Shown here in pieces: positions 5,287 through 34,574 of a stretch of 51,705 bases of DNA. How positions within the stretch are numbered: the stretch's first letter is position 1; every line of letters starts with the position of its first letter. The notes beneath the pieces were generated by a model. That model saw only the letters and a list, made by a program, of their open reading frames with translations, searched no databases and was not told the DNA's origin. A program made the position numbers and the translations under genes. The stretch is from an uncultured Gammaproteobacteria bacterium. Lineage in GTDB: Bacteria > Patescibacteriota > Patescibacteriia > UBA1558 > GWA2-36-10. Where the stretch lies: positions 1 through 51,705 of the forward strand of contig CAZWYP010000001.1 of the NCBI GenBank assembly GCA_964638415.1, given 5' to 3'.

Positions 5287-5333
5287 AATTTGTTATAATA
5301 CACTAACTATTTAATAAGCTCAAAAAAATAATT

Positions 5334-8195: not shown

Positions 8196-8196
8196 T

Positions 8197-8949: not shown

Positions 8950-9021
8950 CAATAACAGCTATCACCGCTTAAGCGGTGATTTTTGTTTTCAGTTAAAAAA
9001 TGGTAAAATATAATAAATAAA

Positions 9022-9861
9022 ATGGGCAGAGTAATGGAAAAAATATCCTCAGACAACTTAAAAAGTATCGCTAATAATATCCGGCAAGATATTGTCCGGA
9101 TGCTGGTAAAAGCCGGCTCCGGCCATCCGGGTGGCTCTTTGGGCCTGGCAGATATTTTTACTGTCCTCTATTGGCAAATACTTAACCACAATCCTAAGAA
9201 ACCCAATTGGCCAGACCGCGATCGGTTGGTTTTATCCAACGGGCATGTCTGTCCCGTGCTTTATTCTGCCTTAGCTAGAGCAAATTACTTTCCTTTAGCC
9301 AGCCTTAACACTTTGCGAAAAATAAATTCCCCTTTGCAAGGCCACCCGCATAATTTATCTTTACCCGGCGTGGAAGTAAGTTCCGGTCCTTTGGGACAGG
9401 GTATTTCCCAGGCGGTAGGATTAGCCTTAGCTGCTAAAATGGACAAAGCCGGCTGGCAAGTATTCTGCGTCACCTCTGACGGCGAGCATAATGAAGGACA
9501 ATTATGGGAAAGTCTATTAGTTGCCGCTAAATACAAATTGGGGAATTTAATCAATATTGTGGATTACAACCATATCCAGATTGACGGATACACTGAAGAC
9601 ATCATGCCCTTGGGCAGTTTGAAAAATAAATACCTGGCTTTTGGCTGGGAAGTGCTGGAAACTAACGGCCATAATTTAAAACAAATTTACAAAACTTTGC
9701 TGCGCGCCAAAAGCTACCAGAAAAAACCAGTGGTAGTAATCGCCAAAACCATTCCCGGCAAGGGCGTTAAATTTATGGAAAATAAGTGGCAATGGCATGG
9801 TACTGCCCCTACGCCAGCGGAAGCTGCCAAGGCTTTAAGCGAATTAAAAACTCTCTACTAA
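9022..9861 (+). CDS. tktN: Transketolase, N-terminal subunit
   Basis: SGHPGGSL, DRLVLSNGH, SGPLGQG, SDGEHNEG (ThDP motif). Confidence 0.93.
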   Translation: MGRVMEKISSDNLKSIANNIRQDIVRMLVKAGSGHPGGSLGLADIFTVLYWQILNHNPKKPNWPDRDRLVLSNGHVCPVLYSALARANYFPLASLNTLRKINSPLQGHPHNLSLPGVEVSSGPLGQGISQAVGLALAAKMDKAGWQVFCVTSDGEHNEGQLWESLLVAAKYKLGNLINIVDYNHIQIDGYTEDIMPLGSLKNKYLAFGWEVLETNGHNLKQIYKTLLRAKSYQKKPVVVIAKTIPGKGVKFMENKWQWHGTAPTPAEAAKALSELKTLY

Positions 9862-10817
9862 TGTTAAAGAATAATATTTTTGACAACCCAGAATTAAAAT
9901 CTACCAGGGATGCTTACGGCGAAGCATTACTAGTTTTAGGCAAGGATAAGAACATTGCCGTAGTGTCAGCCGATTTAGCCGAATCCACCCGCGTCCATTA
10001 TTTTGCCAAAAAATATCCGGAAAGATTTGTGGAGGTAGGAGTAGCAGAACAAAGCTTAATGGGCGTTGCCGCCGGTTTAGCCTTGGGAGGCAAAACCGTC
10101 TTTGCCTCCAGCTTTGCCGTTTTTTCTCCGGGTAGAAATTGGGATCAGCTGCGCGTCAGCGTTTGCTATTCCAAAGCTAATGTTAAAATTGTCTCCACTC
10201 ATACCGGTTTAAGCGTCGGTGAAGATGGTGCCAGCCACCAAGCTTTGGAAGATATCGCCATTACTCGCGTCTTACCGAATTTAACCGTGCTGGTACCGGC
10301 AGACTATGAACAAACCAAACAAGCAATATTTACCATTGCTAAAACCAAGCAACCAACCTATGTCCGCCTTACTCGTCAAAAATCTCCCCTGCTCTACCAA
10401 AAAAACCTGCCGTTTAAGATCGGGAAAGCTAATGTGCTAAAAACCGGCACTGATCTAACTATTGTCGCCTGCGGACCAATTATCTACGAGGCTTTGGTAG
10501 TTGCCCGGGAAGCTGCCAAGAAAAAAATATCCGTAGAGGTAATTGACTGTCCAAGCATCAAGCCGTTGGATAAAAAAACCATTATCGCTTCCGTTAAAAA
10601 AACCAAAAAATTAATTACCCTAGAAGAGCATCAAATCCACGGCGGCTTGGGTTCGGCTATTGTCGAAATGCTATCCCAAAATTATCCAGTACCTACTAAA
10701 ATAATGGGTATTCAAGATACTTTTGGTGAAAGCGGTGATCCGGCCAAGCTTTTAGCAAAATACCAAATAGACCGCAGTGAAATTTTAAAAAACATTTTAT
10801 TAATGACTAAAAAATAA
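9861..10817 (+). CDS. tktC: Transketolase, C-terminal subunit (ATG overlaps the upstream stop, TAATG)
   Basis: VGVAEQ, GEDGASHQALED, EEHQIHGGLGS motifs. Confidence 0.93.
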   Translation: MLKNNIFDNPELKSTRDAYGEALLVLGKDKNIAVVSADLAESTRVHYFAKKYPERFVEVGVAEQSLMGVAAGLALGGKTVFASSFAVFSPGRNWDQLRVSVCYSKANVKIVSTHTGLSVGEDGASHQALEDIAITRVLPNLTVLVPADYEQTKQAIFTIAKTKQPTYVRLTRQKSPLLYQKNLPFKIGKANVLKTGTDLTIVACGPIIYEALVVAREAAKKKISVEVIDCPSIKPLDKKTIIASVKKTKKLITLEEHQIHGGLGSAIVEMLSQNYPVPTKIMGIQDTFGESGDPAKLLAKYQIDRSEILKNILLMTKK

Positions 10818-10819
10818 CC

Positions 10820-11785
10820 ATGCATAACGCCCTTAAAAACCTGCCGGAACAATTTGCTTGGCAGCCGGTAATTAAAAACAGAAAATCCTTAAAAAATTTC
10901 TCCCAGTTTATTATTTTGGGTATGGGTGGATCTCACTTGGCGGCAGACTTGATCAAATTAACCCAGCCAGAGCTCAAGCTAATCATTCACTCCGACTATG
11001 GCTTGCCTAAAATGCCAATTAAAGAATTAAAGCAGTCCTTAATAATTGCCAATTCCTACTCCGGCAATACCGAGGAAGTATTAGCTGGACTAAAAACAGC
11101 CTTGGCTAAAAAATTAAACCTTGCCTGCATTTCTATTGGCGGTAAATTAATTGAATTGGCTAAACAAAATAACCTGCCATATATCCAAATGCCGGATACC
11201 CATATCCAACCCCGTATGGCCTTGGGCTTTAATGCCAAGGCTTTGGCCAAAATCATGGGCTTGAATAATACCTACCAAGAATTATCTAACCTTGCTACTC
11301 AGCTTAATCCTCTGCAATTTAACCAGCCCGGCAAAAAACTAGCCAAAACCTTAAAGCATAAAATACCGGTAATCTATTCCTCTGTTACTAACCAGGCTAT
11401 TGCCTATAACTGGAAGATCAAGCTGAACGAAACTGGTAAAGTACCTGCTTTTTACAATGTCCTGCCGGAGTTAAATCACAATGAGATGAATGGTTTTGAT
11501 GTCAGAGAGACGACTAGAAACTTATCCAAGGACTTTTACTTTATTTTTCTCACGGACAGTACTGACAACTTAAGAATACAGAAAAGATTTAAGATTTTAA
11601 ATAATCTTTACCGAAAAAATAAGCTGCCGGTTATTACCCTGCCTCTTAAAGGAAAAAATGCCTGGCAAAAAATATTCACTAGCTTAACTTTAGCCGACTG
11701 GACTTCTTATTATTTAGCTAAAAGCTACCACTTGGAACCAGAACCGGTGCCGATGGTAGAAGAGTTTAAAAAGTTGATGAAATAA
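10820..11785 (+). CDS. Bifunctional phosphoglucose/phosphomannose isomerase (SIS)
   Basis: GMGGS, SYSGNTEE, QPRMA, NETGK, PELNHNEM motifs. Confidence 0.9.
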   Translation: MHNALKNLPEQFAWQPVIKNRKSLKNFSQFIILGMGGSHLAADLIKLTQPELKLIIHSDYGLPKMPIKELKQSLIIANSYSGNTEEVLAGLKTALAKKLNLACISIGGKLIELAKQNNLPYIQMPDTHIQPRMALGFNAKALAKIMGLNNTYQELSNLATQLNPLQFNQPGKKLAKTLKHKIPVIYSSVTNQAIAYNWKIKLNETGKVPAFYNVLPELNHNEMNGFDVRETTRNLSKDFYFIFLTDSTDNLRIQKRFKILNNLYRKNKLPVITLPLKGKNAWQKIFTSLTLADWTSYYLAKSYHLEPEPVPMVEEFKKLMK

Positions 11786-11816
11786 TTAATAGCGTTAAAA
11801 TCAAGGAGGTGAAATT

Positions 11817-12191
11817 ATGAATAAATACCTAAAACTTCTATTACTTGGCCTGTTAATCTGGGGCATTCCGTTCTTAACCAGTATTTTAGTCTGGGATGTG
11901 CAAGCTAATGCGCCAGCTATTAGTCCAGACTGGTTTTATGCTTTAATGTCTTTCACTGGCATGATTGGCTTTGGCTTAGCTGCTTATGCTTACTTTAAAG
12001 ACCTTAAAGGTAATACTATTAATGAGGGTTGGACTGCTGGTATTATCTGGTATATTGAAATGATTATCCTGGATATGATTTTCCTTATTGGCGTATTCAA
12101 AATGACTATGCCGGAATATTACCCGATGTTCCTAGCTTATGCCGGCACTTTGCTTTTGTCAGTAGTTATCGGCTGGATTAAGAATAAATAA
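11817..12191 (+). CDS. Hypothetical membrane protein, 124 aa (4 TM)
   Basis: Strong AAGGAGGTG SD; hydrophobic; followed by a terminator. Confidence 0.75.
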   Translation: MNKYLKLLLLGLLIWGIPFLTSILVWDVQANAPAISPDWFYALMSFTGMIGFGLAAYAYFKDLKGNTINEGWTAGIIWYIEMIILDMIFLIGVFKMTMPEYYPMFLAYAGTLLLSVVIGWIKNK

Positions 12192-12195
12192 AATA

Positions 12196-12225
12196 AAAAA
12201 CCGTCTATAGCAAAGGGCGGTTTTT
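12196..12225 (+). terminator. Intrinsic terminator
   Basis: AAAAAACCGTC-loop-GGGCGGTTTTTT; a similar hairpin lies near 18037-18067. Confidence 0.7.
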
Positions 12226-12279
12226 TGTTTTGACTTTTACCTTAATTTAAGCTAAATTTAGTGTATTAAATGCAAATAA

Positions 12280-13167
12280 ATGGCTAGAAAAAAAATAATT
12301 TTAGTAACTGGCGGTGCTGGCTTTATTGGTTCCAATCTCATCAAAGAATTGGTTAAAGATAAAAACAACCAAGTCATCTCTTTAGATAACTATTTTACCG
12401 GTTCTAAGCTTAATCATGTGCAAGGAGCCAAATACCTCAAAGGCCACACTAAAGACATTGCTAAACATATTAAAGTTAAACCAGATATTATCTACCACTT
12501 AGGAGAATACTCCCGTGTCGCTGCCAGCCTGCAAGAACCGGCTACTGTCTGGGATTTAAACATTGTCGGTACTTTGGGAGTATTGGAATTCTGGCGCAAA
12601 ATAAAATGCAAATTAGTCTATGCCGGTTCTTCCACTAAATTTAATAATAACAATATTAGAGCCGTGGCCGGTAAAAACCTCGCTCCCTATACCTGGGCTA
12701 AAGCCGTTAACTCCGAACTAGTAGCCAATTATGCCAGCTGGTACAATCTCCCCTATGCCATTGTCTATTTTTACAATGTCTATGGCCCGGGAGAACGCGC
12801 CGGACAGCAAGATAAAGCCTATGGTACGGTTATTGAAACTTTCAAACAAGCCTATTTAAAAAACCAGCCTTTGCCAGTCAGAAAACCAGGAACACAAACC
12901 AGAGCCTTTACTCATGTTAATGACACTGTGCGGGGAATAATCTTAGCCGGCACCAAAGGGCAGGGAGATAACTATGGCATCTGTGCCAAAGAAGTATATT
13001 CTTTACTTGAAGTAGCTAAAATGTTTGGCGGAAAAATTAAAATGCTGGAACAGACCAAAACCAGCCGCTCTTCTGAGGCTATTGATTCAGCTAAAATAAA
13101 AAAGTTGGGCTGGCAACAAAAACATAATCTAGCTGGATACATCAAGGAAATTAAAAAGAAACAATAG
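12280..13167 (+). CDS. NAD-dependent epimerase/dehydratase (extended SDR)
   Basis: TGGAGFIGS, YAGSS, YxxxK (YTWAK), FYNVYGP. Confidence 0.9.
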   Translation: MARKKIILVTGGAGFIGSNLIKELVKDKNNQVISLDNYFTGSKLNHVQGAKYLKGHTKDIAKHIKVKPDIIYHLGEYSRVAASLQEPATVWDLNIVGTLGVLEFWRKIKCKLVYAGSSTKFNNNNIRAVAGKNLAPYTWAKAVNSELVANYASWYNLPYAIVYFYNVYGPGERAGQQDKAYGTVIETFKQAYLKNQPLPVRKPGTQTRAFTHVNDTVRGIILAGTKGQGDNYGICAKEVYSLLEVAKMFGGKIKMLEQTKTSRSSEAIDSAKIKKLGWQQKHNLAGYIKEIKKKQ

Positions 13168-13169
13168 TC

Positions 13170-14348
13170 ATGAAAAAAGTCTTAATTTTCTCTCTAGCAT
13201 ATTACCCTAACCAGGTTTCCGGCGCGGAAGCTGCTATTAAAGAAATTACGGATCGTCTGCCGGACATTGAATGGCATTTAATTACCCTAAGATATAATTC
13301 CCAATTGCCTAAGGTAGAAAAAATTGGAAATGTTCTGGTCTACCGCCTTGGCTTAACTGCCAGTAATCCCTCTTTTGCCGATTTGAACAAATTGCCCTTG
13401 GATCTTAATAAGCCTCTTTACCAACTGCTTGCTCCATTGAAAGGAATGCTACTGCATGGCAAAAACCGCTATGATGCTGTCTGGGCAATAATGGCGCACT
13501 CTGCCGGTGTCCCAGCTGCCTTGTTTAAAATCTTCAACCCAAAAGTAAAATATATTCTCACTCTGCAAGAAGGCGACCCCATTGAACAGATTGAAAAAAC
13601 TCTAAAACCCTTATGGCCTTTATTTACCCGCGCCTTCACTAAAGCAGATAGAGTTCAAGCTATCTCCCGCTACTTGGCAGATTGGGCCTTGATGAGAAAA
13701 GTAGCGACTGACAAAATAGAGATTATCCATAATGGAGCTAATCCTCGGGATCTAAGCGGAGATTTTTCTGCAGATAAGGTAGAAGAAATAAAAAATAAAT
13801 TCGGAAAAAAACCAGATGAAATCTGGTTGGTAAATACCGCCCGGCTAGTTTCCCAAAAAGGCAATGATATCACTATTAGAGCTTTGGCAGAATTACCAGA
13901 TAACATCAAACTACTCTTAGTTGGCGACGGTCCGGAAGAACAGAATCTTAAAAATCTAGCTGAGGAATTAAACTTAACAGCTAGAGTTATCTTTGGCGGG
14001 CGCGTTGACCGCTCAGAAGTGACAGCCTGGCGGCAAGCAGCAGATATTTTTGTCGGCCCCAGTCGCTCCGAAGGCTTGGGCAATGCTTTTCTTTCCGCTA
14101 TGGCCTCCCGCCTGCCGGTTATTGCCACTCGCGAAGGCGGCTTAGCTGAGTTTATCTCTGCTAATACTGCCTGGATTGTAAATAAAGACAATCCCCCGCA
14201 GATTGCTGAGGCAGTAAAAAATATTCTGGCGCATCCGGATAAAGTCAAAACTGTTACTGAACAAGCCAGAAAACTGGTGGAAGAAGAATATGACTGGGAT
14301 CAGGTGGCTAAAAAAATGCAAGCTAAAGTATTTAATATTTTACTCTAA
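13170..14348 (+). CDS. GT4 glycosyltransferase
   Basis: SRSEGLGNAFLSAMASRLPVIAT...GG motif; GT-B layout. Confidence 0.9.
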   Translation: MKKVLIFSLAYYPNQVSGAEAAIKEITDRLPDIEWHLITLRYNSQLPKVEKIGNVLVYRLGLTASNPSFADLNKLPLDLNKPLYQLLAPLKGMLLHGKNRYDAVWAIMAHSAGVPAALFKIFNPKVKYILTLQEGDPIEQIEKTLKPLWPLFTRAFTKADRVQAISRYLADWALMRKVATDKIEIIHNGANPRDLSGDFSADKVEEIKNKFGKKPDEIWLVNTARLVSQKGNDITIRALAELPDNIKLLLVGDGPEEQNLKNLAEELNLTARVIFGGRVDRSEVTAWRQAADIFVGPSRSEGLGNAFLSAMASRLPVIATREGGLAEFISANTAWIVNKDNPPQIAEAVKNILAHPDKVKTVTEQARKLVEEEYDWDQVAKKMQAKVFNILL

Positions 14349-14890
14349 TGTCTCTATTAGAAAAAGCAACTAGAATAATGCTTGAAGCGCATGCTGGACA
14401 AGTGCGTAAAACTGACAACTCTCCCTATTTTGTCCATCCAATTATGGTCGCCTTAAAGCTGGCTAAATACAAATTCCCTGATGAAGTAATTGCCGCCGGA
14501 CTGTTGCATGATGTTCTGGAAGACACTAAATTTCCCGCAAGTAGAATAAAAAAAGAAGTGGGGATAAAAGTTTTGCAGATGGTTCAGGCTTTAAGTGAAG
14601 ATAAGGCTCTGCCTAATTGGGAGGAAAGAAAAATTAAATATTTAAACCAGGTAGCCAAAAGCTCACTGGCTATTAAAGCAGTTTCCTTAGCAGATAAAAT
14701 TCACAATTTAGAAAGCATTTTAGACGGTTATGCTGTCATGGGGAAAAAACTGTGGAGTAAATTTACCCGCGGCAAGGAGCAAAAAATTAAAATGGAAAAA
14801 ACCTTACTAAAAATGTTCAAAAAAAATTGGCGCCATCCGCTAATTAACGAATACGCCAAATTAATAAATAAAGTAGCGAAGTTGAAGTAA
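14348..14890 (+). CDS. Stand-alone RelA/SpoT-type HD hydrolase (Mesh1/SAH-like)
   Basis: HAGQ.RK..PY..HP, LLHDVLEDT, ADKIHNL motifs. Confidence 0.85.
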   Translation: MSLLEKATRIMLEAHAGQVRKTDNSPYFVHPIMVALKLAKYKFPDEVIAAGLLHDVLEDTKFPASRIKKEVGIKVLQMVQALSEDKALPNWEERKIKYLNQVAKSSLAIKAVSLADKIHNLESILDGYAVMGKKLWSKFTRGKEQKIKMEKTLLKMFKKNWRHPLINEYAKLINKVAKLK

Positions 14891-14891
14891 A

Positions 14892-15983
14892 TTAATAAAT
14901 CGCTGCCTGCCTTTGTTTTTCCGCTTCATCCCGCAAGCTGTCCCTAATCTTCCGGTAATCTTCAATAGTATTAGTTGGCAGTTCCTGGCCGGCTAAAACT
15001 GCCATTAACGCTTCGTGCCAAAACTCGATGCGTTTTTTATTTAAGGTAAGTAAATCACCGCTCACTTCCTTTAAAGACTTAGCGTAATGCCTAATTAACT
15101 CTATTAAGCGATAAATTCTTAACAACTGCAAAGATAATGATTCTTCCTGCTCCCTATTATCTCTGACATAATTTACCAGCAGTTTAGCTAATTCCGGATT
15201 ATACAGCATCATAAAATTAATAAACCGGGCCCAGCTTTCATATTTATTACCAAAACGCAAAGAAGTGTGGTCAAGGATATACACTTCATTATCCCGAATC
15301 CGGAAATTATGAGGCACCAAATCCCAGTGAGCCAGCCAGCCGCAATACAAATCTACTATTGGCAAGTTGTCTGCAAAAAATTGCCGAGCTTTGCTTAATG
15401 TCTGTTTAAAGCGCTGATCATCTGCTTTTATGTCTTGTAATTCTGTTAAGTACTGATCTATTTTTTCCAGATAATCTTCAGCCTGCCACCAGCCAAAATC
15501 TTGAGAAATTGATCGCCGATGCTCATAGGTTACAGCCTGTGCTCCTTCTTGCAGAGCAAAAATCTTTAAACTCAGAAAAAACTGCTCCTTTAAATCCTTT
15601 TCTAAGAAAGTGCTCTCTTGGTCAATAAATTCAGTAATTAAAATAGTATATTGCCCGGTGTCGGAAAACAGCAATTTAGCTGGAGATAAGAAAACATTGT
15701 AAGCAAAATTCAGCTTATCCAGCATATTGCGGCTATTATGCTCGCTCTTAATTTCCGCCTGGCCCTCAGGGTCGCTGGAAACTTTAATAATTACTCTCTT
15801 ATCATCTTTAAGCTGCCGTCCGCTTAAAACTAATTTCTTAGCTTTGGCGGAAGAAAATTCACCACCAATTAACGGCTGCTGTTCATCAACGGCAAAACCA
15901 AAATTCTTCAGAATCGGGCGGATAGCCTGCAGCTCCTGCTGGAAATAATCTGACCATGATTTTGCTGTGCTGGATTTAATCAT
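14892..15983 (-). CDS. Protein kinase-like/APH-type phosphotransferase
   Basis: IIK lysine, HWDLVPHN catalytic loop, YILD metal-binding strand. Confidence 0.7.
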   Translation of the reverse strand: MIKSSTAKSWSDYFQQELQAIRPILKNFGFAVDEQQPLIGGEFSSAKAKKLVLSGRQLKDDKRVIIKVSSDPEGQAEIKSEHNSRNMLDKLNFAYNVFLSPAKLLFSDTGQYTILITEFIDQESTFLEKDLKEQFFLSLKIFALQEGAQAVTYEHRRSISQDFGWWQAEDYLEKIDQYLTELQDIKADDQRFKQTLSKARQFFADNLPIVDLYCGWLAHWDLVPHNFRIRDNEVYILDHTSLRFGNKYESWARFINFMMLYNPELAKLLVNYVRDNREQEESLSLQLLRIYRLIELIRHYAKSLKEVSGDLLTLNKKRIEFWHEALMAVLAGQELPTNTIEDYRKIRDSLRDEAEKQRQAAIY

Positions 15984-16971
15984 TGTTTTCAGATGAAGTT
16001 AATAAAGCTTTATTTAAAGCTGTTAAGTGATCATTCCAAGACCAGTTAATTGCCGGTGGTAAGTCTTTAGCTAAAGCGGTTTTAATTTCTTCGGCTAATT
16101 CTGTCACAGAAAAATTGGCAATGTTCTTCAAATGCAAAGCGGAAGTCTTGCTTAAATACTGATCCTGCGCTGAAGAAATCACTCCCAAGAAGATCACTCG
16201 ATCAGCAAGATTAAGCTGCTTAGCTAATTTTTGCAAATCATTTTTCCCCCGGCCTTCTCCGGCTAAATATAACTTAATTTCCGGCCAGTCTTTCACTAAT
16301 AAGGAAAGGGCGGAAAATAAATTAGCTAAATTTGCCCATTCATATAACTTAGTCTGCAGATAAATCTGCTGCTTAATTTTACTGGCTGGAAAAGGTAAAA
16401 TTTCTTCAGCAACTGGTGGTAGCGGGTTGATAATAATTTTCTCCGGCAACACCTGGTAATTCTTAACAGCCAGTTTAGCTAAATTTTCATCAGGAACAAT
16501 TACCTGATCAGCTTGGCGGAGAGTCCAGCGCTGCATTTTAACCAATTGCTTGGTTTTTTTATTATGCCCCGGATTCTGCAAAAAATCTGCCAGAGACTTT
16601 TCAGTAAAGCCTAGAGCTAAAGCTCGCTTCCAAGCTTCATCTTCGCTGAAATTAATAATTACCGGACGACGGCGCAGGCGCTTAGCAATGATGGCCGGCA
16701 AGCCAGCGGCTACCGCATTTTGAGCAATAATTAAATCTGCCGTCTCAGCCAGCTTTAAAAGCTGCCAAGTAAAGCGCCATAATCTTAACAATAAAGGCTG
16801 ATCTTTATCTATGGTAATTAAATTAAAATTCTTGACGGGCAAAGTTTTCCCAGTATAAGCCAAAACCGTTACCTGATTATTCTCAGCTAATTGTTCTGCC
16901 AGTTTTTTTGCATAATTGGCCAAGGGGTCAATTTCTGGCGGGTATAATGGAATGGCAATAATTATTTTCAT
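15976..16971 (-). CDS. GT4-like glycosyltransferase with shortened C-terminus
   Basis: GT4 N-terminal domain and LAGEG...LADRVIFLG present; the E-x7-E segment is not evident. Confidence 0.75.
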   Translation of the reverse strand: MKIIIAIPLYPPEIDPLANYAKKLAEQLAENNQVTVLAYTGKTLPVKNFNLITIDKDQPLLLRLWRFTWQLLKLAETADLIIAQNAVAAGLPAIIAKRLRRRPVIINFSEDEAWKRALALGFTEKSLADFLQNPGHNKKTKQLVKMQRWTLRQADQVIVPDENLAKLAVKNYQVLPEKIIINPLPPVAEEILPFPASKIKQQIYLQTKLYEWANLANLFSALSLLVKDWPEIKLYLAGEGRGKNDLQKLAKQLNLADRVIFLGVISSAQDQYLSKTSALHLKNIANFSVTELAEEIKTALAKDLPPAINWSWNDHLTALNKALLTSSENND

Positions 16972-17114
16972 AGCAATAAGATACTATAACTATAATCCCA
17001 GTAAAGGTCAATAGTCAACCAAGATTAGCTAAAAAAATAAATTGACAATCCTTTATTTATTATATAGTCTGAAGTTAATTAAAAAGTTCCCTACAATCAT
17101 AAGGACTTCCAACT

Positions 17115-18014
17115 ATGTCATCAGACTACCAAAGCTTGGCTATGCTAGCTCAGGCCCGCGACCAAATCATTAACGCCAATCATGACGAACCAGTTAATGT
17201 CGCTGTGGTATTAGGCTCCGGTTTAGGAGAAGGAGCAAAAGAATTATTTACTTGTTGCCAATCCACCATCCTGCCTTATGCTACCATTGCCGGCTGGCCT
17301 AATTACAAAAGCATCAAGCCAGTTAAAGGCCATAAGAACCTACTGCTGCTTGGCAATTTTGTCGGCAAGCATGACAACTACCGTCTGGCTATTATGCAGG
17401 GCCGCCCCCACTATTACCAGGGCTATACTGTCCACGAAACAGTTTTCCTGCTGCGCGCCCTGATTTTAGCCGGAGCCAAAACTGTCATTCTTTGTTCTGC
17501 GGTCGGCGCCGCCAAACGCGGACGTCAGGCTGGTGAAATCGTAGTGATTTCCGATCATCTCAATCTGACTGGAGTCAATCCTTTGATCGGCATTGAAACC
17601 TCCGAGCTATTGATGAGCTGCGGTCCGCAATTTACCGACCAAAGCGAAGTGTATGACAAGCAGCTGGCTAAACATCTACATTCCTCCGGCGCTACCACCA
17701 ATTCCGCCACCTATGCCTTCATGACCGGTCCCAGCTACGAAACGCCTGCAGAGATTCATTCACTGGCGCAGCTGGGAGCATCGGTAGTCGGCATGAGCAT
17801 GCCGCTGGAAGCAATGGCTGCTAACCAGCTGGGCGCTAAAATCGGCGGACTGACGCTAATTACCAATATGGGAGCAGGTTTAGGCGGGAAGCTTTCCCAC
17901 CAAGAAGTGATTGCTATGACTGATTTGAAGCGACCTGACTTTTACTATATCTTATGGCAAGCTTTACTTGACTTGCCCAAACCGTTCTATCATCCAGAAG
18001 TTGCAGACAGCTAG
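17115..18014 (+). CDS. punA: Purine nucleoside phosphorylase (trimeric type)
   Basis: VLGSGLG, QGRPHYY, GPSYETPAEI, VGMS, ITN motifs. Confidence 0.9.
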   Translation: MSSDYQSLAMLAQARDQIINANHDEPVNVAVVLGSGLGEGAKELFTCCQSTILPYATIAGWPNYKSIKPVKGHKNLLLLGNFVGKHDNYRLAIMQGRPHYYQGYTVHETVFLLRALILAGAKTVILCSAVGAAKRGRQAGEIVVISDHLNLTGVNPLIGIETSELLMSCGPQFTDQSEVYDKQLAKHLHSSGATTNSATYAFMTGPSYETPAEIHSLAQLGASVVGMSMPLEAMAANQLGAKIGGLTLITNMGAGLGGKLSHQEVIAMTDLKRPDFYYILWQALLDLPKPFYHPEVADS

Positions 18015-18083
18015 TTTCAACGGAAGTCTCTTATACAAAAAACCGTCCTGTTCCCAGGGCGGTTTTTCCTTTTTACTAAACTT

Positions 18084-18929
18084 TTATTTAAGTAGATTCT
18101 CCCTAATCCTAATTGAATAATCTTCCACATCGCCAATCTCTTGGGAAACCTTGCTAATATTAAATTTCTCCCTGGCTTGTTCAATTGGTAAATCAGTATC
18201 CAATAATCCTGCCGACATTGCTAATTCGTCAGCATGGCCGGTTAATAATAATTCCCAAGACCAGAAGGGAAGCTTAGCCGGCGTTACCTCATTGACATGC
18301 TTAGCAATTAAAGAAGTGCAATTAGCTGTTAAAGTATTATACCACTTGGGATTAGTTGCCAAATCATTCATCTCCACCAGCATATTCCTTAACATAACTT
18401 GGGCTTTAGCGGGAGTGGTTTTTACTGGATAAAGATAAACATCATGCTCTCTAACATTAGCTCTGACTAAAATCGCATCCCGTTCATCGGCGGCAATATA
18501 CATCAAAGGATAAGTTCTGAATAATCCTTTGAAGATATTATAGACTTGCCCTTTGGTTTTTCTGGCTTCAATAGTAAGGCTTAAAAATTTGCCATCGGAA
18601 AACTCCCAGCTTAAAAAAGTATGAGCAGCATTCTTAGTTTCAGAAAAAGGCTCATTGATATACCAGACTTTAACTACTTTATCTAAGTCATAAGTCTCAT
18701 TATAATAGTTGGCAATACTCGGCTCTTCACCGGAGCTGTAGCGGAAATTACGGACATTATAAATAGTGGCTAAATTGCCGTTAAACTCCACTGTTGGCAT
18801 CACCGCTGTGTGTTCCTGCCAGTTTCCTGACAAAGGAGCCGGTAGAAAATACTGCCAAAAGGCAAAAACAGCTATTACTAAGATTAAACCGCCAAAAACG
18901 TATTTAAGTTTTATTTTTTTGAGTTGCAT
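18084..18929 (-). CDS. DUF4105/Lnb N-terminal-like exported protein
   Basis: HTFLSW, IEARK, ADERD, YNTLTANCT pattern; N-terminal TM. Confidence 0.75.
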   Translation of the reverse strand: MQLKKIKLKYVFGGLILVIAVFAFWQYFLPAPLSGNWQEHTAVMPTVEFNGNLATIYNVRNFRYSSGEEPSIANYYNETYDLDKVVKVWYINEPFSETKNAAHTFLSWEFSDGKFLSLTIEARKTKGQVYNIFKGLFRTYPLMYIAADERDAILVRANVREHDVYLYPVKTTPAKAQVMLRNMLVEMNDLATNPKWYNTLTANCTSLIAKHVNEVTPAKLPFWSWELLLTGHADELAMSAGLLDTDLPIEQAREKFNISKVSQEIGDVEDYSIRIRENLLK

Positions 18930-19000
18930 AACTTCTTAATTTTACCGTTTTATTATTAAAAAAACAATAATCCAGTTAAAATACAAAGTTATTTTAACCC

Positions 19001-19029
19001 TTGCCAAACCCAGTTTTTTCTGGTATTAT
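19001..19029 (+). promoter_or_regulatory. Promoter of the tRNA operon
   Basis: TTGCCA-17-TATTAT upstream of tRNA-Ile. Confidence 0.65.
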
Positions 19030-19052
19030 CTTATCTGTTAACTTAAAAATAA

Positions 19053-19129
19053 GGGCATATAGCTCAGTTGGTTAGAGCGCCACACTGATAATGTGGAGGT
19101 CGGAAGTTCAACTCTTCCTATGCCCACCA
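19053..19129 (+). tRNA. tRNA-Ile(GAT)
   Basis: Cloverleaf; anticodon arm CCACA-CTGATAA-TGTGG; encoded CCA. Confidence 0.95.
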
Positions 19130-19130
19130 T

Positions 19131-19205
19131 GCCGCGGTAGCTCAGTGGTAGAGCAGAGGCCTGAAGAGCCTTGTGTCGGTGGTTCGATCCCGCCCCGCGG
19201 CACCA
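19131..19205 (+). tRNA. tRNA-Phe(GAA)
   Basis: Cloverleaf; anticodon loop CTGAAGA; encoded CCA. Confidence 0.95.
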
Positions 19206-19217
19206 TTTTTTTAAAAA

Positions 19218-19294
19218 CGGGGTGTGGCGCAGTTGGCTAGCGCGCGTGCTTTGGGAGCATGAGGTCGGAGGTTCAAGTCCTCTCACCCCGACCA
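19218..19294 (+). tRNA. tRNA-Pro(TGG)
   Basis: Cloverleaf; anticodon loop TTTGGGA; encoded CCA. Confidence 0.95.
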
Positions 19295-19305
19295 TTTAAA
19301 ATATT

Positions 19306-19334
19306 TTGAACCTTTATAATATATATGATATAAT
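19306..19334 (+). promoter_or_regulatory. Internal promoter for the HTH-LAGLIDADG-like ORF and tRNA-Gly(TCC)
   Basis: TTGAAC-17-TATAAT with an extended -10 TG. Confidence 0.6.
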
Positions 19335-19355
19335 ACTATTAGTTAGTTCAATAAT

Positions 19356-20027
19356 ATGATAACTAAAAGTATAAAACAAAAAGCAATAGAATACAGAAAA
19401 CAGGGGTATTCGTATAATTTAATCTCTCAAAAGCTAGATATAGCTAAAAGCACTCTAAGCCATTGGTTAAGAGAAATTCCTTTTAATCCTAACCGAGAAG
19501 TGATAGAGCGAGTACGAGATGCTAGATTAAAATCAGCTAAATTTAAAAATGGACAGCGGTTAGATAATATAATCGCTATGAGGCTGGAAGCTATAAAAGA
19601 GCTGGGCAATATCACTAAAAGAGATCTATGGATGATGGGTATTGGACTATACTTAGGCGAAGGTTCTAAAGCATATGAATATATTAGAATCGCTAATTCT
19701 GATCCTCAGGTTATCAAAATATCTATGAAGTGGTTCAGAGAAATTTGCGGTTTAAAAAATAATAATTTCAGATTAAACCTTCATTTATATCCCGATTCTA
19801 ACATTAAAAAATCTATAAATTACTGGTCGCTCATAACAGGGCTTAGTAAAAATCAATTTGGTAAAATACAAATAGATCGAAGAATTAATAAATCAAAAAA
19901 TAAGAAAAAATTATTACCTAATGGAACGCTCCATATAATAGTAAAAAGTAATGGTAATAAAAAATTGGGGGTAAGCCTTCATAGAAAAATAATGGGCTGG
20001 ATAGAGGCCGTGGAGAATAAAATATAA
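19356..20027 (+). CDS. HTH plus LAGLIDADG-like (homing-endonuclease/WhiA-like) protein
   Basis: N-terminal HTH (GYSYNLISQKLDIAKSTLSHWL); LAGLIDADG-like helix MGIGLYLGEGSK followed by IANSDP; Lys/Ile-rich. Confidence 0.7.
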   Translation: MITKSIKQKAIEYRKQGYSYNLISQKLDIAKSTLSHWLREIPFNPNREVIERVRDARLKSAKFKNGQRLDNIIAMRLEAIKELGNITKRDLWMMGIGLYLGEGSKAYEYIRIANSDPQVIKISMKWFREICGLKNNNFRLNLHLYPDSNIKKSINYWSLITGLSKNQFGKIQIDRRINKSKNKKKLLPNGTLHIIVKSNGNKKLGVSLHRKIMGWIEAVENKI

Positions 20028-20031
20028 TCAA

Positions 20032-20106
20032 GCGGGTATGGTATAATGATTATTATGTCTGCCTTCCAAGCAGACGATACGGGTTTGATTCCCGTTACCC
20101 GCTCCA
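20032..20106 (+). tRNA. tRNA-Gly(TCC) with a non-canonical elbow
   Basis: Cloverleaf; anticodon loop CTTCCAA; D-loop AATGATTA; T-loop TTTGATT; encoded CCA. Confidence 0.9.
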
Positions 20107-20119
20107 GATCTATCAAAAG

Positions 20120-20144
20120 AACAACCCTAAAGGTTGTTTTTTTG
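20120..20144. repeat. 25-bp terminator hairpin, direct repeat copy 1
   Basis: AACAACCCTAAAGGTTGTTTTTTTG, identical to 22280-22304. Confidence 0.9.
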
Positions 20145-20981
20145 CTTTAAAATTTGTCGAGAGGGATATGAATAATTTAACTGTTCGCTATTACTTAATA
20201 AATATAAATAATCAATTAGTTTTTCATCGCTAACTAGGTCTGATGTTTCTAATAAAATAGATACTGCTTTATTTCTTATTGCACCAGAGGGTAATAATAA
20301 CAACCTATCTTTAATTAAATCATAAATCTTTTTTTTCTGCTTAGCCTTTAATTTTGAAACTATTGGTATTAGCTGTCTTAAAATTATATTAATTTCTTCT
20401 TCTGTCTTGGAATCTAACTTATTGATAAATATACTGATCAACTCATCATCTTTTTCAATCCACTGACTGGCTGTTATCAGATCATAATGATATTTACTCT
20501 TTATTATCTTTTGAAAGTCTTGGTAATTATCTTTTAAGATTTTATTAATTTCTTTTTCTAATTTATACAAAATCTTATCATTAGAATAAATAATGCCGTT
20601 GTTCCTGGTACCGGATAATTTTCCTTGGCCGGAATTATAAATAAAATCCAACCTAGCTTGGTGCTGACTAAGTAAATTTTTTATCTTTGCCAAAAATCCT
20701 TGAGACACCTCCTCTTTATGCTGATCTTTAATAAAATAATTATCTGCCGACAATTCACAGCTTATAACCGTCATCTCTAAATCCGGATAAAGTGGGTTCA
20801 TAATAGATACCACTTTATAATCATTATATACAAATTTTTTCAATTCTTTTTCTATCTCTAATAGTTCCTCATAATCATAATCCTTGCCAATGAGCTGGTT
20901 AAACGTATTAATGTTAACTTGCTGCGGGTAATTTATACCATCATGAAGCCAAAATTCAATCTGTTTTAATTTATATTTCAT
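20127..20981 (-). CDS. Hypothetical protein, 284 aa, helical C-terminus
   Basis: Long AT-rich ORF; its stop codon lies inside the terminator repeat. Confidence 0.7.
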   Translation of the reverse strand: MKYKLKQIEFWLHDGINYPQQVNINTFNQLIGKDYDYEELLEIEKELKKFVYNDYKVVSIMNPLYPDLEMTVISCELSADNYFIKDQHKEEVSQGFLAKIKNLLSQHQARLDFIYNSGQGKLSGTRNNGIIYSNDKILYKLEKEINKILKDNYQDFQKIIKSKYHYDLITASQWIEKDDELISIFINKLDSKTEEEINIILRQLIPIVSKLKAKQKKKIYDLIKDRLLLLPSGAIRNKAVSILLETSDLVSDEKLIDYLYLLSNSEQLNYSYPSRQILKQKNNL

Positions 20982-21083
20982 AGAATAATCTTATCATAAA
21001 TTAATAATAACTTAATCTTGACTAAAAAATAATTTTATATTATAACTTACCTAATTTTCTAGTTCTTTAAAAAGGAGATTACT

Positions 21084-22055
21084 GTGGCTATTCTAGTGCT
21101 AACAAATAAATGGGATCCTCACTCGGACTCAGTGATTGAACAAATAGAGCACCTGGGCGCTGAGGTGGTTAGAATTAACACTGAAGACATTGGGCAAAAT
21201 AAACTCTCATGGCAGCTAGCTGTTGATGTTCCGCTTATTACAACGCCGGAAAACAGAGTGGTCTCTACCAATAATATCCGTGTTGTATACTTGCGTCGAA
21301 CACCAAAAGTTGCAGTTGCCAACCTTGATTCTAAATACGAGAAGTTTGTCCAATATGAATTTTCGGTTTTTACCGAATCACTGGAGACAACTTTACCCGA
21401 TGTAACTTGGTTTGATCATCCAATCCACAGAAGTTATGCAGACAATAAAATACGACAATTAACCAAAGCTAAGCAGGTTAATCTTGTTGTTCCACCAACA
21501 TTGGTGACAAATGATTTCGAGCAAATCAAAAAATTTATCTCGCTTGGCAAGGTCGTTTACAAAACCTTGTATGCTCCTGTGATTGATTACGGCCAGCAAG
21601 GCACATCTGTTGTCCACACCACACTACTTGATCCCAAACGGTTGATGGAATACGGAGAATTGATTAGCTCCTGTCCGGGAATTTTTCAGTCTTTTGTTGA
21701 AAAAGCTTATGATCTGAGAATTCATTTCATCAACGGGCACATAATACCAATTAAAATTGATTCTCAAAAATTTGAAGAGTCGATAATTGATTGGCGGAAG
21801 GCGAATTTCAGAAAACTGAACTATGAGATTGTGGAAATTCCACAGGATATTAAGACGAAAATCTCAATCTTCATGCAAGAATTGAATTTGCGGCTCGGAA
21901 TATTTGACTTCGCTGTAACAGCAAATGGAGAATATGTTTTTCTGGAGCTAAATCCTGATGGAAATTGGCTATGGATAGATTCGTTTATCAACTACCAAAT
22001 CAGTCAAAAAATTGCTGAACAGCTCGTCTCCTCACATGAGAGAGAAAGGAGGTGA
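21084..22055 (+). CDS. MvdC/MvdD-type ATP-grasp peptide maturase (graspetide synthetase)
   Basis: GTG start after an AAGGAG SD; DNKIRQL..A, PPTLVTND, VVYKTL, IFQSFVEKAYDLRI, DWRK, FLELNPDGNWLW motifs. Confidence 0.9.
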   Translation: MAILVLTNKWDPHSDSVIEQIEHLGAEVVRINTEDIGQNKLSWQLAVDVPLITTPENRVVSTNNIRVVYLRRTPKVAVANLDSKYEKFVQYEFSVFTESLETTLPDVTWFDHPIHRSYADNKIRQLTKAKQVNLVVPPTLVTNDFEQIKKFISLGKVVYKTLYAPVIDYGQQGTSVVHTTLLDPKRLMEYGELISSCPGIFQSFVEKAYDLRIHFINGHIIPIKIDSQKFEESIIDWRKANFRKLNYEIVEIPQDIKTKISIFMQELNLRLGIFDFAVTANGEYVFLELNPDGNWLWIDSFINYQISQKIAEQLVSSHERERR

Positions 22056-22060
22056 TGATA

Positions 22061-22228
22061 ATGATTCTGGAAGTCAAACCACTTGCTTCTTTGTTTGCCA
22101 GTGATCCCAGGCCGCTAATGGATAATTCTCAGGAATATAATCCTGATATCCAAAGGGATCCTGGGTGGCAACAAAGAGCAAACGGTACCGATACTTATAG
22201 GGGTGACACGGAAGATCACGACAAGTAA
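22061..22228 (+). CDS. Putative graspetide precursor peptide, 55 aa (not in the ORF track)
   Basis: MILEVKPLASLFASDPRPLMDNSQEYNPDIQRDPGWQQRANGTDTYRGDTEDHDK; AAGGAGGTG SD overlaps the maturase stop; followed by a terminator. Confidence 0.8.
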   Translation: MILEVKPLASLFASDPRPLMDNSQEYNPDIQRDPGWQQRANGTDTYRGDTEDHDK

Positions 22229-22238
22229 GTAATCGGCC

Positions 22239-22272
22239 TAGGTCCTCAACTAATACGTTGGGGACCTATTTT
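22239..22272 (+). terminator. Terminator of the ATP-grasp/precursor operon
   Basis: TAGGTCCTCAAC-loop-GTTGGGGACCTA-TTTT. Confidence 0.75.
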
Positions 22273-22279
22273 ATTATTT

Positions 22280-22304
22280 AACAACCCTAAAGGTTGTTTT
22301 TTTG
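22280..22304. repeat. 25-bp terminator hairpin, direct repeat copy 2
   Basis: Identical to 20120-20144. Its TTGTTT lies 17 nt before TATAAT (22317-22322), upstream of tRNA-Gly(CCC). Confidence 0.9.
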
Positions 22305-22334
22305 TTATTAGCGCTCTATAATGCCTACTATTAG

Positions 22335-22408
22335 GCGGGATTAGTACATCGGTAGTACGCGTGCTTCCCAAGCATGAGAGGCGAGTTCGACTCTCGTATC
22401 CCGCTCCA
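22335..22408 (+). tRNA. tRNA-Gly(CCC)
   Basis: Cloverleaf; anticodon loop TTCCCAA; encoded CCA. Confidence 0.93.
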
Positions 22409-22522
22409 GATTAATATAATATTATTTGAAATTTCGTATCGGCTTAAAATCCTTAATTTCTAATATAGCTAACTCCATCAAAAAACTACTCTTGGCTGAG
22501 TAGTTTTTAAAATTTATATTTT

Positions 22523-23773
22523 TTAATTTTCAGATGGCCAGATACTGTTAAGATGAATAATGCCCGGTCTCATTCTGTAACCATTACTAACATAAGTGAG
22601 AATAGCTCCATCATCAGGTATTAAAATAATCCGAGCGCGATTAGCAGTAGAGACACCATAAGCAATAACTGAAGTATTGGGACTAATTAAAGTATCGGTT
22701 AACCCAAATTGAGTTGAATTGCCAGGATTAGCATCCATGGTTATATCACCATACAACCTAATATTTTTAGAAGTTCCTCGGCTGACAATAATTGGATTGT
22801 CTAGAGCAAAAGTAGATGTAGCCCTGTCACCAACTGGAGGAGCCGCATTAATTGGTCCTAATGCTACATTACCATCAAATACGGTTAAGTTAGTAGCATT
22901 AGATGAAGAAGCCGCAAATAATATCGCTGTAACACGAATATCTTCTCCTGAATCAGTAGCGTCAAAAGTCCAAGATCCTAATAAAACATCATTGCTACCA
23001 ATAGCTACTTCTCCATCGATTGGCATGCTATCTCTGGTAACAGATAATGAAGCCATCCTTATGGTTTGGGTATTAGTATTAACAATTGTATCCGGAGTAA
23101 TAACAACTTCCCCACCGTTATTATGACCATGGGCAATAATAGCAGTAGCTGGAGTAATTAAGCTGGCATAAATTGTGTCATTATCTAGCCAACCACTATT
23201 ATTCATTAAATCACCAACAACTTTAATCACTGTTTCTCCAACCGGTAAAGTAAAGTTATCCTCAAAATGCACTGTTAAAGTATCATGGCTTAAATTTGTT
23301 GGTCCAGCTAAACTAACACCCGTAAAAGCATCTACTAGCCTAACTGATTGTAAGGCACCTTCAATGGTTGTGCTAGAAGTAGAAGCAATACTTAGAGTTA
23401 AGTTTGTAATATCAACCGCTTCATTTTCTACTGTAATTTTAAAACCGCCCAGAACTTGATTATAGCCTACGGTAATATTTTCTGCACCTAATATATTACT
23501 TCTTTCAACTATCAAATTAGTAGTAGATGTTGGGGTCTCTAATAAACTTTCTAAATAAGCAACCCTATTTTCTAAGGCTATAAATCTAGCCTCATCCCAG
23601 CCTTCACCGGGCGGTCCAGGTATTAATTCTATATTATCGATCTGCCGTTGAAGACCATTGATAGCATCCCACAGTTCCTGAAATGGATGACCATTAGATG
23701 CGGAAACAAAATTAACAGCTACCAATAAGACTATAGCAGTAGTTATTATTACTAATTTCCTCATAATTTCCAT
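22523..23773 (-). CDS. Secreted surface/S-layer-like protein with a short coiled coil/GPP neck and beta-sandwich repeats
   Basis: Signal peptide; LQRQIDNIELIPGPPG; Thr/Asn-rich repeats of the LGxF..T....E.V.(I/V)T.L type. Confidence 0.7.
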   Translation of the reverse strand: MEIMRKLVIITTAIVLLVAVNFVSASNGHPFQELWDAINGLQRQIDNIELIPGPPGEGWDEARFIALENRVAYLESLLETPTSTTNLIVERSNILGAENITVGYNQVLGGFKITVENEAVDITNLTLSIASTSSTTIEGALQSVRLVDAFTGVSLAGPTNLSHDTLTVHFEDNFTLPVGETVIKVVGDLMNNSGWLDNDTIYASLITPATAIIAHGHNNGGEVVITPDTIVNTNTQTIRMASLSVTRDSMPIDGEVAIGSNDVLLGSWTFDATDSGEDIRVTAILFAASSSNATNLTVFDGNVALGPINAAPPVGDRATSTFALDNPIIVSRGTSKNIRLYGDITMDANPGNSTQFGLTDTLISPNTSVIAYGVSTANRARIILIPDDGAILTYVSNGYRMRPGIIHLNSIWPSEN

Positions 23774-23948
23774 TTAATAATTACATTTTCAAACTACCAC
23801 CAAAAGAATAAATAGTCAAAGTCACATAATATCACTTAAAAATTTTTTTGGTATATTAAGTATAGCCTTATAAAATCATTTTTCCTGCACCTTTAAAACG
23901 GATAATATATTTAATTAAATTTTCTAAAATCTGCATAACTAACTCCAC

Positions 23949-23977
23949 AAAAAACCACCCCCTAAAGGGTGGTTTTT
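23949..23977 (-). terminator. Terminator after the 16S gene
   Basis: AAAAAACCACCC-loop-GGGTGGTTTTT. Confidence 0.8.
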
Positions 23978-24086
23978 CTATTTAACAACTTTAAAGTGAC
24001 CATTTTCTAACCGGTGGTATATTCTCCCGAAAGAGAATATTCGACTAATTGTGATGGCCTAGCTGGCCATCAACACCTACTCCTTA

Positions 24087-25572
<1,486 letters not shown>

Positions 25573-32703: not shown

Positions 32704-32844
32704 GGCAACCTCGATTCTGAAAATGATATTAAGTACTTATGAATATAATATTCAACACCAAAAACAAAAAAAGGTCAAGAAAAAGACCCGCTACGTGATC
32801 GTAAAAACGATTTTACGTAGCGGGTCTTAACACAGACAGAAAGA

Positions 32845-34276: not shown

Positions 34277-34313
34277 TGTTTGCTCCTTGCTTTTTGCTGA
34301 AAAAATGAATTGT

Positions 34314-34574
34314 TTATGCTCTAATCGGTTGAACACTGTTAGCGCGCCACCCGGCAGTATGTTTCTGCACATCAAACAAATTGACATGCAAACTGACTGT
34401 GGGGTGATTTTCTTCCTGCCAAGCTTGTCCGCTACCTATGGAAAAGGTAATAGACTTACCCAGCTGTTGTTGGTGGCTATCTTCAAGCGGCATAGCCACG
34501 GCATACGGGCCATGGCGGCCATTGGGGATAACCTTGACCACAACCGCTTGGATTGCGTTCATTGTCTCCGGCAT
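34314..34574 (-). CDS. Hypothetical protein, 86 aa (small beta-barrel-like)
   Basis: AAAGGA SD; VVKVIPNGRHGPYAVA...ITFS...AGWRA. Confidence 0.65.
   Translation of the reverse strand: MPETMNAIQAVVVKVIPNGRHGPYAVAMPLEDSHQQQLGKSITFSIGSGQAWQEENHPTVSLHVNLFDVQKHTAGWRANSVQPIRA

Follow-up and report, generated by a model that had tools for sequence, protein, structure and literature searches.

This analysis concerns a 51,705-nucleotide stretch of DNA (contig CAZWYP010000001.1, positions 1 to 51,705, hereafter the window) from an uncultured member of the Patescibacteriota, which was recovered from a bioreactor metagenome and has near-identical strains in sludge metagenomes. The window holds a 2,135-bp unit (20145-22279) made up of a partner gene, a divergent promoter region, an ATP-grasp maturase gene, a precursor gene and a terminator of its own, and this cassette is enclosed by two copies of a 25-nt sequence between tRNA-Gly genes. 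An earlier reading of the letters (the original prediction) had described the locus as an island for a peptide that is made on ribosomes and modified after translation (RiPP), bounded by a duplicated tRNA terminator and inserted at, or excisable through, terminator hairpins. The features of the locus are as follows.

20032-20106, + strand: tRNA-Gly(UCC), the host gene upstream of the proposed insertion (ARAGORN; Rfam, 63.9 bits)
20114-20144, no strand assigned: full 31-nt palindromic bidirectional terminator with a 13-bp stem and the loop CTAAA (fold, terminator scan)
20127-20981, - strand: partner gene, 284 aa, its product combining an N-terminal alpha/beta domain with an ARM/HEAT-like solenoid in the C-terminal half
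20982-21083, no strand assigned: divergent promoter region, read from the sequence as TTGACT (21018-21023), a 17-nt spacer and TATAAC (21041-21046), then AAAGGAG and a GTG start
21084-22055, + strand: predicted ATP-grasp graspetide maturase, 323 aa (NCBIfam, Pfam)
22061-22228, + strand: predicted 55-aa precursor peptide, counted from the ATG at 22061 (its open reading frame opens with GTG at 22052), with leader KPLASLFAS and core GTDTYRGDTEDHDK
22239-22279, + strand: the cassette's own terminator and right end of the proposed insert, consisting of a hairpin (22239-22268, 12-bp stem) and the T-run TTTTATTATTT
22280-22304, + strand: repeat copy 2, with a 7-bp stem only, its right side running on into the host flank TTATTAG
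22335-22408, + strand: tRNA-Gly(CCC), the host gene downstream of the proposed insertion (ARAGORN, Rfam)

The cassette and its flanking repeats

The 25-mer AACAACCCTAAAGGTTGTTTTTTTG occurs exactly twice in the window, at 20120-20144 and 22280-22304 and on the + strand in both cases. A third copy was absent from the window at up to three mismatches, and 100 shuffles gave 0 matches (chance expectation 0). Identity between the copies ends abruptly at either edge, and contigs of four independent public sequencing runs cross both of them, so the pair is not an assembly artefact. The duplication after tRNA-Gly(TCC) and before tRNA-Gly(CCC) that had been described is thus present as claimed, and its copies do enclose the 284-aa gene and the graspetide operon.

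Copy 1 is the 3' 25 nt of the 31-nt palindrome at 20114-20144, the rest of which is unrepeated, and it starts 13 nt past the CCA end of tRNA-Gly(UCC); the duplicated unit is accordingly, in agreement with the original prediction, a terminator hairpin and not the tRNA 3' end. The palindrome folds as DNA at -9.6 kcal/mol (z -3.0), and the terminator scan matched copy 1 on the - strand and copy 2 on the + strand, each combining a stem-loop with a T-run as in a predicted intrinsic, Rho-independent terminator. The partner gene ends in QKNNL and a stop, its last five codons lying in the T-run and right arm of copy 1 and its TAG in the loop, an overlap that had also been read correctly before. Copy 2 begins 11 nt after the cassette's hairpin (-14.7 kcal/mol, z -4.3, also matched by the terminator scan), which is the stronger terminator of the two. 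It carries TTGTTT (22294-22299), which stands 17 nt from a perfect TATAAT (22317-22322) that itself ends 12 nt before tRNA-Gly(CCC), again as described; a consensus promoter scan did not list this promoter because its -35 element matches at 3/6 bases only. No inverted repeat joins the insert ends at 20145 and 22279.

The maturase aligned over its full length to TIGR04185 (MvdC family, 1e-61) and TIGR04187 (GRASP_SAV_5884, 6.7e-61), scoring below the curated equivalog cut-offs of both, and it matched the MvdD pre-ATP-grasp domain in Pfam (PF21068, 1e-5). Contigs from RNA runs fall inside its gene (21545-21896). The precursor open reading frame overlaps the maturase stop codon and has a ribosome-binding site, AAAGGAGG, 8 nt before 22061. 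Its product aligns with the precursors of loci L010, L013, L017, L025 and L026 in other lineages, with 10 invariant columns including T43, T45 and T50-E51-D52, and across the six lineages a P-hydrophobic leader (PFG/PLA-x-FAS) is followed by a core of the form TxT....TEDxD. An MvdC/MvdD-type maturase next to a precursor with a leader motif and a Thr/Ser-Asp/Glu core identifies the cassette, on sequence grounds, as a predicted graspetide (omega-ester/amide RiPP) gene cluster.

The partner is not the orphan it had been taken for, as it is a conserved companion of ATP-grasp and precursor genes in six other lineages. A word-indexed protein search with it matched only itself, so an exhaustive search was needed, and this yielded a family of 25 representatives among 1.84 billion proteins; no relatives were found in viral contigs. 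By local comparison the partner shares 27-30% full-length identity (E 1e-25 to 1e-33) with the neighbour of the precursor gene in each of L010, L013 and L017. Its AlphaFold2 model (predicted local distance difference test, pLDDT, 92) gave weak PDB matches to armadillo repeats (E 3e-3 and above), while the N-terminal alpha/beta domain was without a match, and the protein has no signal peptide. Confidently modelled and with an ARM-like domain, it is a candidate peptide-binding accessory factor.

Graspetide clusters in Candidate Phyla Radiation (CPR) bacteria have already been described (Makarova et al. 2022, PMC8939145), and they resemble the present cassette in having an ATP-grasp maturase and adjacent precursor, a P-hydrophobic leader, a Thr/Asp/Glu-rich core and an uncharacterised accessory gene. 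The present accessory protein differs from theirs in lacking a signal peptide and in its ARM-like C-terminal half, and neither flanking repeats nor a permuted gene order are described there (PMC8939145). The genes analysed here define a rare three-gene graspetide family. In the literature we found no paper that describes a terminator duplication around RiPP cassettes.

Gene order and repeats in related loci

Homologues of the maturase with 42-44% identity (P0002-P0004) each belong to a unit in which the maturase gene is followed by an overlapping gene for a 55-56-aa precursor and then by a convergent gene for a protein of 289-320 aa. Homologues of the partner in three further lineages (P0138-P0140) are likewise convergent with a precursor gene, the maturase being seen in L025 as well. 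The order maturase, precursor, convergent partner is found in six other lineages, and the order of a leftward partner followed by rightward maturase and precursor genes only in the window. The window order is a circular permutation of that of the relatives, opened at the 3'-3' junction between precursor and partner, and the breakpoint of this permutation is the 25-mer repeat, to the nucleotide. With 22279 joined to 20145, the hairpin at 22239-22268 is followed by a T-run shared with the final codons of the partner, which then ends in QILKK and has its stop inside that T-run, as in L010, L026 and L027; 45 nt separate the two stop codons (29-48 nt in the relatives). This join restores the relatives' architecture, so the cassette is complete without the 25-mer. 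The T-run TTTTATTATTT itself matches TTTTTATTAT, which comes after the hairpin in L026 and L027, and the homologue in L017 is preceded by a promoter similar to that of the window (TTGACA-N17-TATAAT).

The neighbourhoods of the cassette differ wholly between lineages, which indicates that it is sporadic or transferred. Two loci of one lineage, L013 and L016, carry the same cassette (98.9% identical) with different left neighbours. The cassette behaves as a self-contained, sporadically distributed unit with its own promoter and terminator. The left neighbour is a caspase-like peptidase C14 in one sample and a peptidase M20 in the other (L013 7673 / L016 1017), the breakpoint lying about 330 nt upstream of the maturase gene. 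The more distant ATP-grasp homologues P0005 and P0008 were set aside as belonging to other cluster types without the partner gene. In L017 a CRISPR-like array (5093-7700; repeat GTTTCTACGATTCACTTCTGAGGAAAGGAATCTTCAC, ~37 nt, period 70-73 nt) stands 0.4 kb from the graspetide cassette.

Flanking repeats were also seen around one of the related cassettes. That of L017 lies between the two copies of a direct repeat of 44 nt, alike at 43/44 positions, which is non-palindromic and unrelated in sequence to the 25-mer; one copy lies by the SerRS start and the other at the partner 5' end. In L010 and L013 a flanking repeat of at least 16 nt was not found. Within the window, a second pair of hairpins brackets another gene.

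42960-42990, no strand assigned: copy A of the second hairpin pair (AAAAAACAACCTTgctaaAAGGTTGTTTTTT), after a 983-aa gene; 29-nt exact direct repeat
43044-44327, + strand: M16-family peptidase-like gene between the hairpins, weakly YfmH/PqqF-like
44339-44365, no strand assigned: copy B of the second hairpin pair, 10 nt from the 3' end of tRNA-Val(GAC), which is on the - strand

The members of this pair are identical over 29 nt, and over about 37 nt with one indel, and form a sister hairpin of the 25-mer, with which they have the arms and the CTAAA loop in common; the same elements recur, with a compensatory change, at 23950-23977. Hairpins 23950-23977 and 49097-49127 share the arm AAAACCACCC/GGGTGGTTTT, and the former, just beyond the 3' end of the 16S rRNA gene, also holds CCTAAAGG, the centre of the 25-mer. 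In all, roughly 14 terminator-like hairpins occur in the window, 7 of them in two look-alike families, and the dispersed family comprises 4 close members and 2 more distant ones. The core 7-mer AACAACC is not enriched outside hairpins, and an uptake-sequence reading of the family was rejected. Duplication extends to another kind of sequence: a 40-nt direct repeat, 85% identical, occupies promoter-like regions of - strand genes 1.9 kb apart (32740-32779 and 34612-34651), so local duplication also affects regulatory elements other than terminators.

Outside the window, AACAACCCTAAAGGTTGTTTTTTTG gave 0 matches in GTDB species representatives and 0 in viral contigs. The Joint Genome Institute (JGI) metagenomes held 1 match, in an unrelated AT-rich contig (L002, 5852-5876), where it forms an ordinary terminator between an acetyltransferase-like and a CDP-alcohol phosphatidyltransferase-like open reading frame with no tRNA nearby; such sequences can therefore arise independently. 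Dispersal of the hairpin had been named beforehand as an outcome that would speak against a link with variable loci. Related hairpins are indeed dispersed in the window and the 25-mer is a terminator in L002, yet exact hairpin copies inside the window occur solely as neighbouring pairs that bracket genes.

The framing of the locus as a site between two tRNA-Gly genes did not hold up. The 3' 28-mer of tRNA-Gly(UCC) (T-arm and acceptor) is common to two distant Patescibacteria metagenome-assembled genomes (MAGs), L019 and L020, in both of which an A-tract/T-tract palindromic terminator of other sequence lies directly 3' of tRNA-Gly(UCC) and no tRNA-Gly(CCC) comes after it.

Proposed insertion into a host terminator and its alternatives

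The 25-mer pair has, in our estimate, roughly an even chance of being the footprint left when the cassette, as a circle or concatemer, was inserted into a host terminator and 25 of the terminator's 31 nt were duplicated. The lines of evidence for it are the repeat, the conserved unit, the permutation (which implies a circle), the outer flanks, the second hairpin pair, the repeat in L017, the lack of a recombinase in the scanned open reading frames and the 29% GC of 20001-21000, the partner gene region, in a window with about 40% GC over most of its length. From these we infer a host origin for the hairpin, a circular intermediate, a route of duplication and regulatory roles for the two copies.

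Before the event, tRNA-Gly(UCC) would have been followed by a single 31-nt palindromic bidirectional terminator, CAAAAGAACAACC-CTAAA-GGTTGTTTTTTTG, continuing into TTATTAG. The 2,135-bp cassette, coming in as a circle or concatemer opened at the 3'-3' junction of precursor and partner, would have entered this hairpin, leaving 25 of the 31 hairpin bases on either side. The target might have been duplicated by a staggered break across the palindrome and fill-in, or by one Campbell-type crossover at a short stretch of identity, and no cis-encoded recombinase would have taken part. Copy 1 would keep terminating tRNA-Gly(UCC) while also supplying the partner's last five codons, stop and terminator; copy 2 would back up the cassette terminator and preserve the TTGTTT -35-like element before tRNA-Gly(CCC). 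As the upstream terminator and the downstream -35-like element would both be retained, selection would be expected to favour such products.

Whether the hairpin belonged to the host or to the cassette bears directly on this proposal. The unique left flank of copy 1, CAAAAG, lengthens the stem to 13 bp, from the 7 bp found in copy 2. Read as the reverse complement, copy 2 and its right flank run CTAATAA-CAAAAAAACAACCTT..., and the hairpin at 44339 runs CTAATAA-CAAAAAACAACCTT...; the flank is identical at the two sites, so homology extends past copy 2 into its outer flank. Also pointing to the host are the arms and loop common to the 42960/44339 pair, the A-tract/T-tract terminators directly 3' of this tRNA in L019 and L020, and the completeness of the cassette without the 25-mer. 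We judge a host origin of the hairpin to be more likely than a cassette origin, on the strength of these sequence comparisons, and the novel junctions would then be 20144/20145 and 22279/22280.

Pfam scans of most window open reading frames of at least 110 aa (those at 3682-4023, 34134-34601 and 45952-48468 lay outside the scan) showed no integrase, transposase or recombinase domains, in line with the earlier observation that no integrase or transposase is present. The island and its flank co-occur in the same runs. Of the two halves of the earlier inference, insertion at a terminator hairpin is favoured by the sporadic occurrence of the cassette, by the permutation broken at the repeat and by outer flanks that continue the hairpin; that the island is excisable found no support, since all strains in public runs carry it and the contigs hold no empty-site or circle junction.

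Several points weigh against insertion into a host terminator. The case for a host hairpin depends on flanks as short as 6 and 7 nt, together with resemblance to a hairpin family. A hairpin loop also contains the partner's stop in L017, L025, L026 and L027, which means that the cassette itself could be the source of the hairpin. In L017 the repeat forms no hairpin and overlaps the annotated 5' end of the partner, and a longer-than-unit copy would account for it as well as a target duplication would. We know of no transposase family that matches target duplications of 25-44 bp. An alignment with close relatives had been suggested as a way to find the empty site, and none was found through synteny: homologues of the neighbouring Lnb_N/DUF4105 protein (71-84% identity) lie on contigs of Falkowbacteria-like MAGs whose gene order is not conserved with the window, and the nearest public relatives, at about 71% identity for a neighbouring protein, are not syntenic here. 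In the contigs (not reads) of eight runs the island was always present, with no skip, empty-site joint or circle joint.

Some of these points would be explained if the repeat were cassette DNA, the hairpin being the partner's native 3' end and terminator and the island one unit with 25 nt of terminal redundancy. Such an island could arise by copying past one turn of a circle or concatemer, or by deletions that spared only the functional hairpins after a resident cassette with the usual gene order had been duplicated in tandem. In the four loci with a stop in the hairpin, the partner's tail codons are inside it too, followed by a T-run of its K/I codons, exactly as in copy 1; copy 2 stands where the partner 3' end would be in the usual order; and the 44-nt repeat of L017 includes the annotated partner start (MVEWGS...) and recurs upstream of the maturase promoter, as a copy of one unit plus 44 nt would. 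Novel junctions, however, would not be expected to have outer flanks that both continue the hairpin, with copy 1 flanked on its left by an extension of the palindrome and copy 2 on its right by a match to another host hairpin. The hairpin family is also found at other host loci, a circle junction without the hairpin already gives the complete architecture of the relatives, and the tandem-duplication route requires two deletions that end at hairpin edges, all of which makes a cassette origin of the repeat rather unlikely in our view. We give still less credence to the hairpin family being an att-, dif- or attC-like recombination site for a recombinase encoded elsewhere, through which cassettes loop out and re-enter and the island would still be mobile. 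The two gene-bracketing pairs do share the arms AACAACC/GGTTGTT, one member of each pair lies 10-13 nt beyond the 3' end of a tRNA gene, the permutation implies a circle, inverted arms around a short spacer resemble the core sites of tyrosine recombinases, and RecA crossover needs a minimum length not far from the 25-44 bp of these repeats. Yet the scanned open reading frames of the 51.7-kb window encode no recombinase, the spacer between the common arms is 5 nt in one case and 9 nt in another, copy 2 is without an outer arm, the L017 repeat is without a palindrome, no excision or empty-site joint appears in the contigs of the eight runs, and neither GTDB species representatives nor viral contigs contain the 25-mer.

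That no insertion took place, with ordinary terminators made identical by convergence or gene conversion and the gene order stemming from an unrelated old rearrangement, appears very improbable. It would sit well with the 7 look-alikes among the ~14 terminator-like hairpins of the window, with the 85%-identical pair of 40-nt promoters and with the role of the exact 25-mer as a simple terminator in an AT-rich, unrelated organism. It does not account for exact identity that is confined to neighbouring, gene-bracketing copies and sharp at both edges, for a redundant copy 2 placed 11 nt after a stronger terminator, or for a permutation breakpoint that coincides with the repeat to the nucleotide.

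Insertion of a circular cassette into a host terminator can be set beside known mobile systems. Tyrosine-integrase tRNA islands and integrative elements likewise have cargo by a tRNA gene, short exact direct repeats and an implied circle. They differ from the present locus, where no recombinase domain was found in the scanned open reading frames, the repeat is a terminator 13 nt after the tRNA and not part of its 3' end, and the length is 2.1 kb only. Nor does the locus have the make-up of a transposon or insertion sequence, as no transposase was found in the scanned open reading frames, the insert ends have no inverted repeat and the duplication is 25 nt long. Integrative mobile elements exploiting Xer (IMEX) and the pdif modules of Acinetobacter plasmids carry small cargo, have no recombinase of their own and use palindromic sites of ~28 nt that are acted on by a host enzyme. 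Here too, small cargo without its own recombinase lies between short palindromic sites (spacer 5 or 9 nt); unlike in those systems, the hairpin has a 5-nt loop and A/T-tract terminator arms, and no dif-like 11-6-11 site or Xer gene was seen in the window. In naturally transformable bacteria, Campbell-type insertion-duplication by a circle and a single crossover leaves cargo flanked by a duplicated patch and requires no dedicated recombinase. The patch in the present locus differs in being just 25 nt long, and one would have to assume that the incoming circle carried it. Integron cassettes are also circular and have hairpin-forming sites at their 3' ends. Unlike them, the present cassette has its own promoter and a 19-31-nt hairpin that is not of attC size (57-141 nt), and neither an attC site nor an IntI/attI platform was found in the window. 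Repetitive extragenic palindromic (REP) sequences, bacterial interspersed mosaic elements (BIMEs) and uptake-sequence terminators are families of look-alike palindromes at the 3' ends of genes, where they also serve as terminators. The hairpins described here differ in having a handful of copies in the window and a core 7-mer that is unenriched outside hairpins, and no RAYT gene was found in the window.

CPR bacteria have tiny genomes, and the route by which they gain accessory genes is poorly understood. The terminator-embedded cassette, the 25-bp duplication, the rotated gene order and the 44-bp repeat of L017 point to gene gain via circles without a cis-encoded recombinase. If this were general, flanking repeats of regulatory hairpins could flag recently acquired cassettes in MAGs. 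A bolder proposal, which we think decidedly unlikely, is that palindromic terminators by tRNA genes are landing and exchange sites, in this Patescibacteria lineage, for small, promoter-bearing cassettes without their own recombinase that travel as circles and enter by target-duplicating or short-homology recombination. It would amount to a terminator-based cassette economy resembling that of integrons or pdif modules, which would account for the 44-nt repeat in L017 too.

Neighbouring features and strain variation

The tRNA-Gly(UCC) genes of the window (20032-20106), L019 (46-119) and L020 (4145-4219) have an unusual T-loop, TTTGATT, with T at the usual C56, and just one G in their AT-rich D-loop. 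Squeezed in between tRNA-Pro and tRNA-Gly(UCC) in the window is a 223-aa open reading frame (19356-20027, + strand) that stops 4 nt short of tRNA-Gly(UCC). Its N-terminal part contains a helix-turn-helix, residues 72-140 weakly match the homing endonuclease I-DmoI (E 0.14) around the motif GLYLGEGS, and its sequence suggests that it may be a free-standing LAGLIDADG-like gene; a single-sequence fold (pLDDT 39) was unusable. In the Berkelbacteria locus L020 the same two tRNA genes are just 347 nt apart, and the last 20 nt of tRNA-Pro(UGG) recur about 235 nt downstream (3778-3797 and 4013-4033 of this MAG), the mark classically left by an integrase-type insertion or by what remains of one.

The best homologues of the neighbouring Lnb_N/DUF4105 protein are in Candidatus Falkowbacteria and other Patescibacteria MAGs. 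The rRNA genes of the window are unlinked, comprising a 16S gene (24088-25572) and a partial 23S gene. The partial 23S match (1-2096, - strand) covers model positions 1-1886 in 2096 nt, and the surplus of ~210 nt may be an insertion or intron. Insertions and introns are often reported in the rRNA genes of CPR bacteria.

Strain variation was seen in run X2, which shows zero differences over 19216-24114. This identity is not special to the island, because the right flank in X2 is also ~99.95% identical. The co-occurring strain in this run is ~99.95% identical to the right of the 16S gene and has patches of 1-8% divergence to the left (2500-19154). One such patch, 13070-16658, holds glycosyltransferase genes, and elsewhere 806 nt (3243-4050) are swapped for 611 other letters, a pattern which indicates mosaic recombination between strains.

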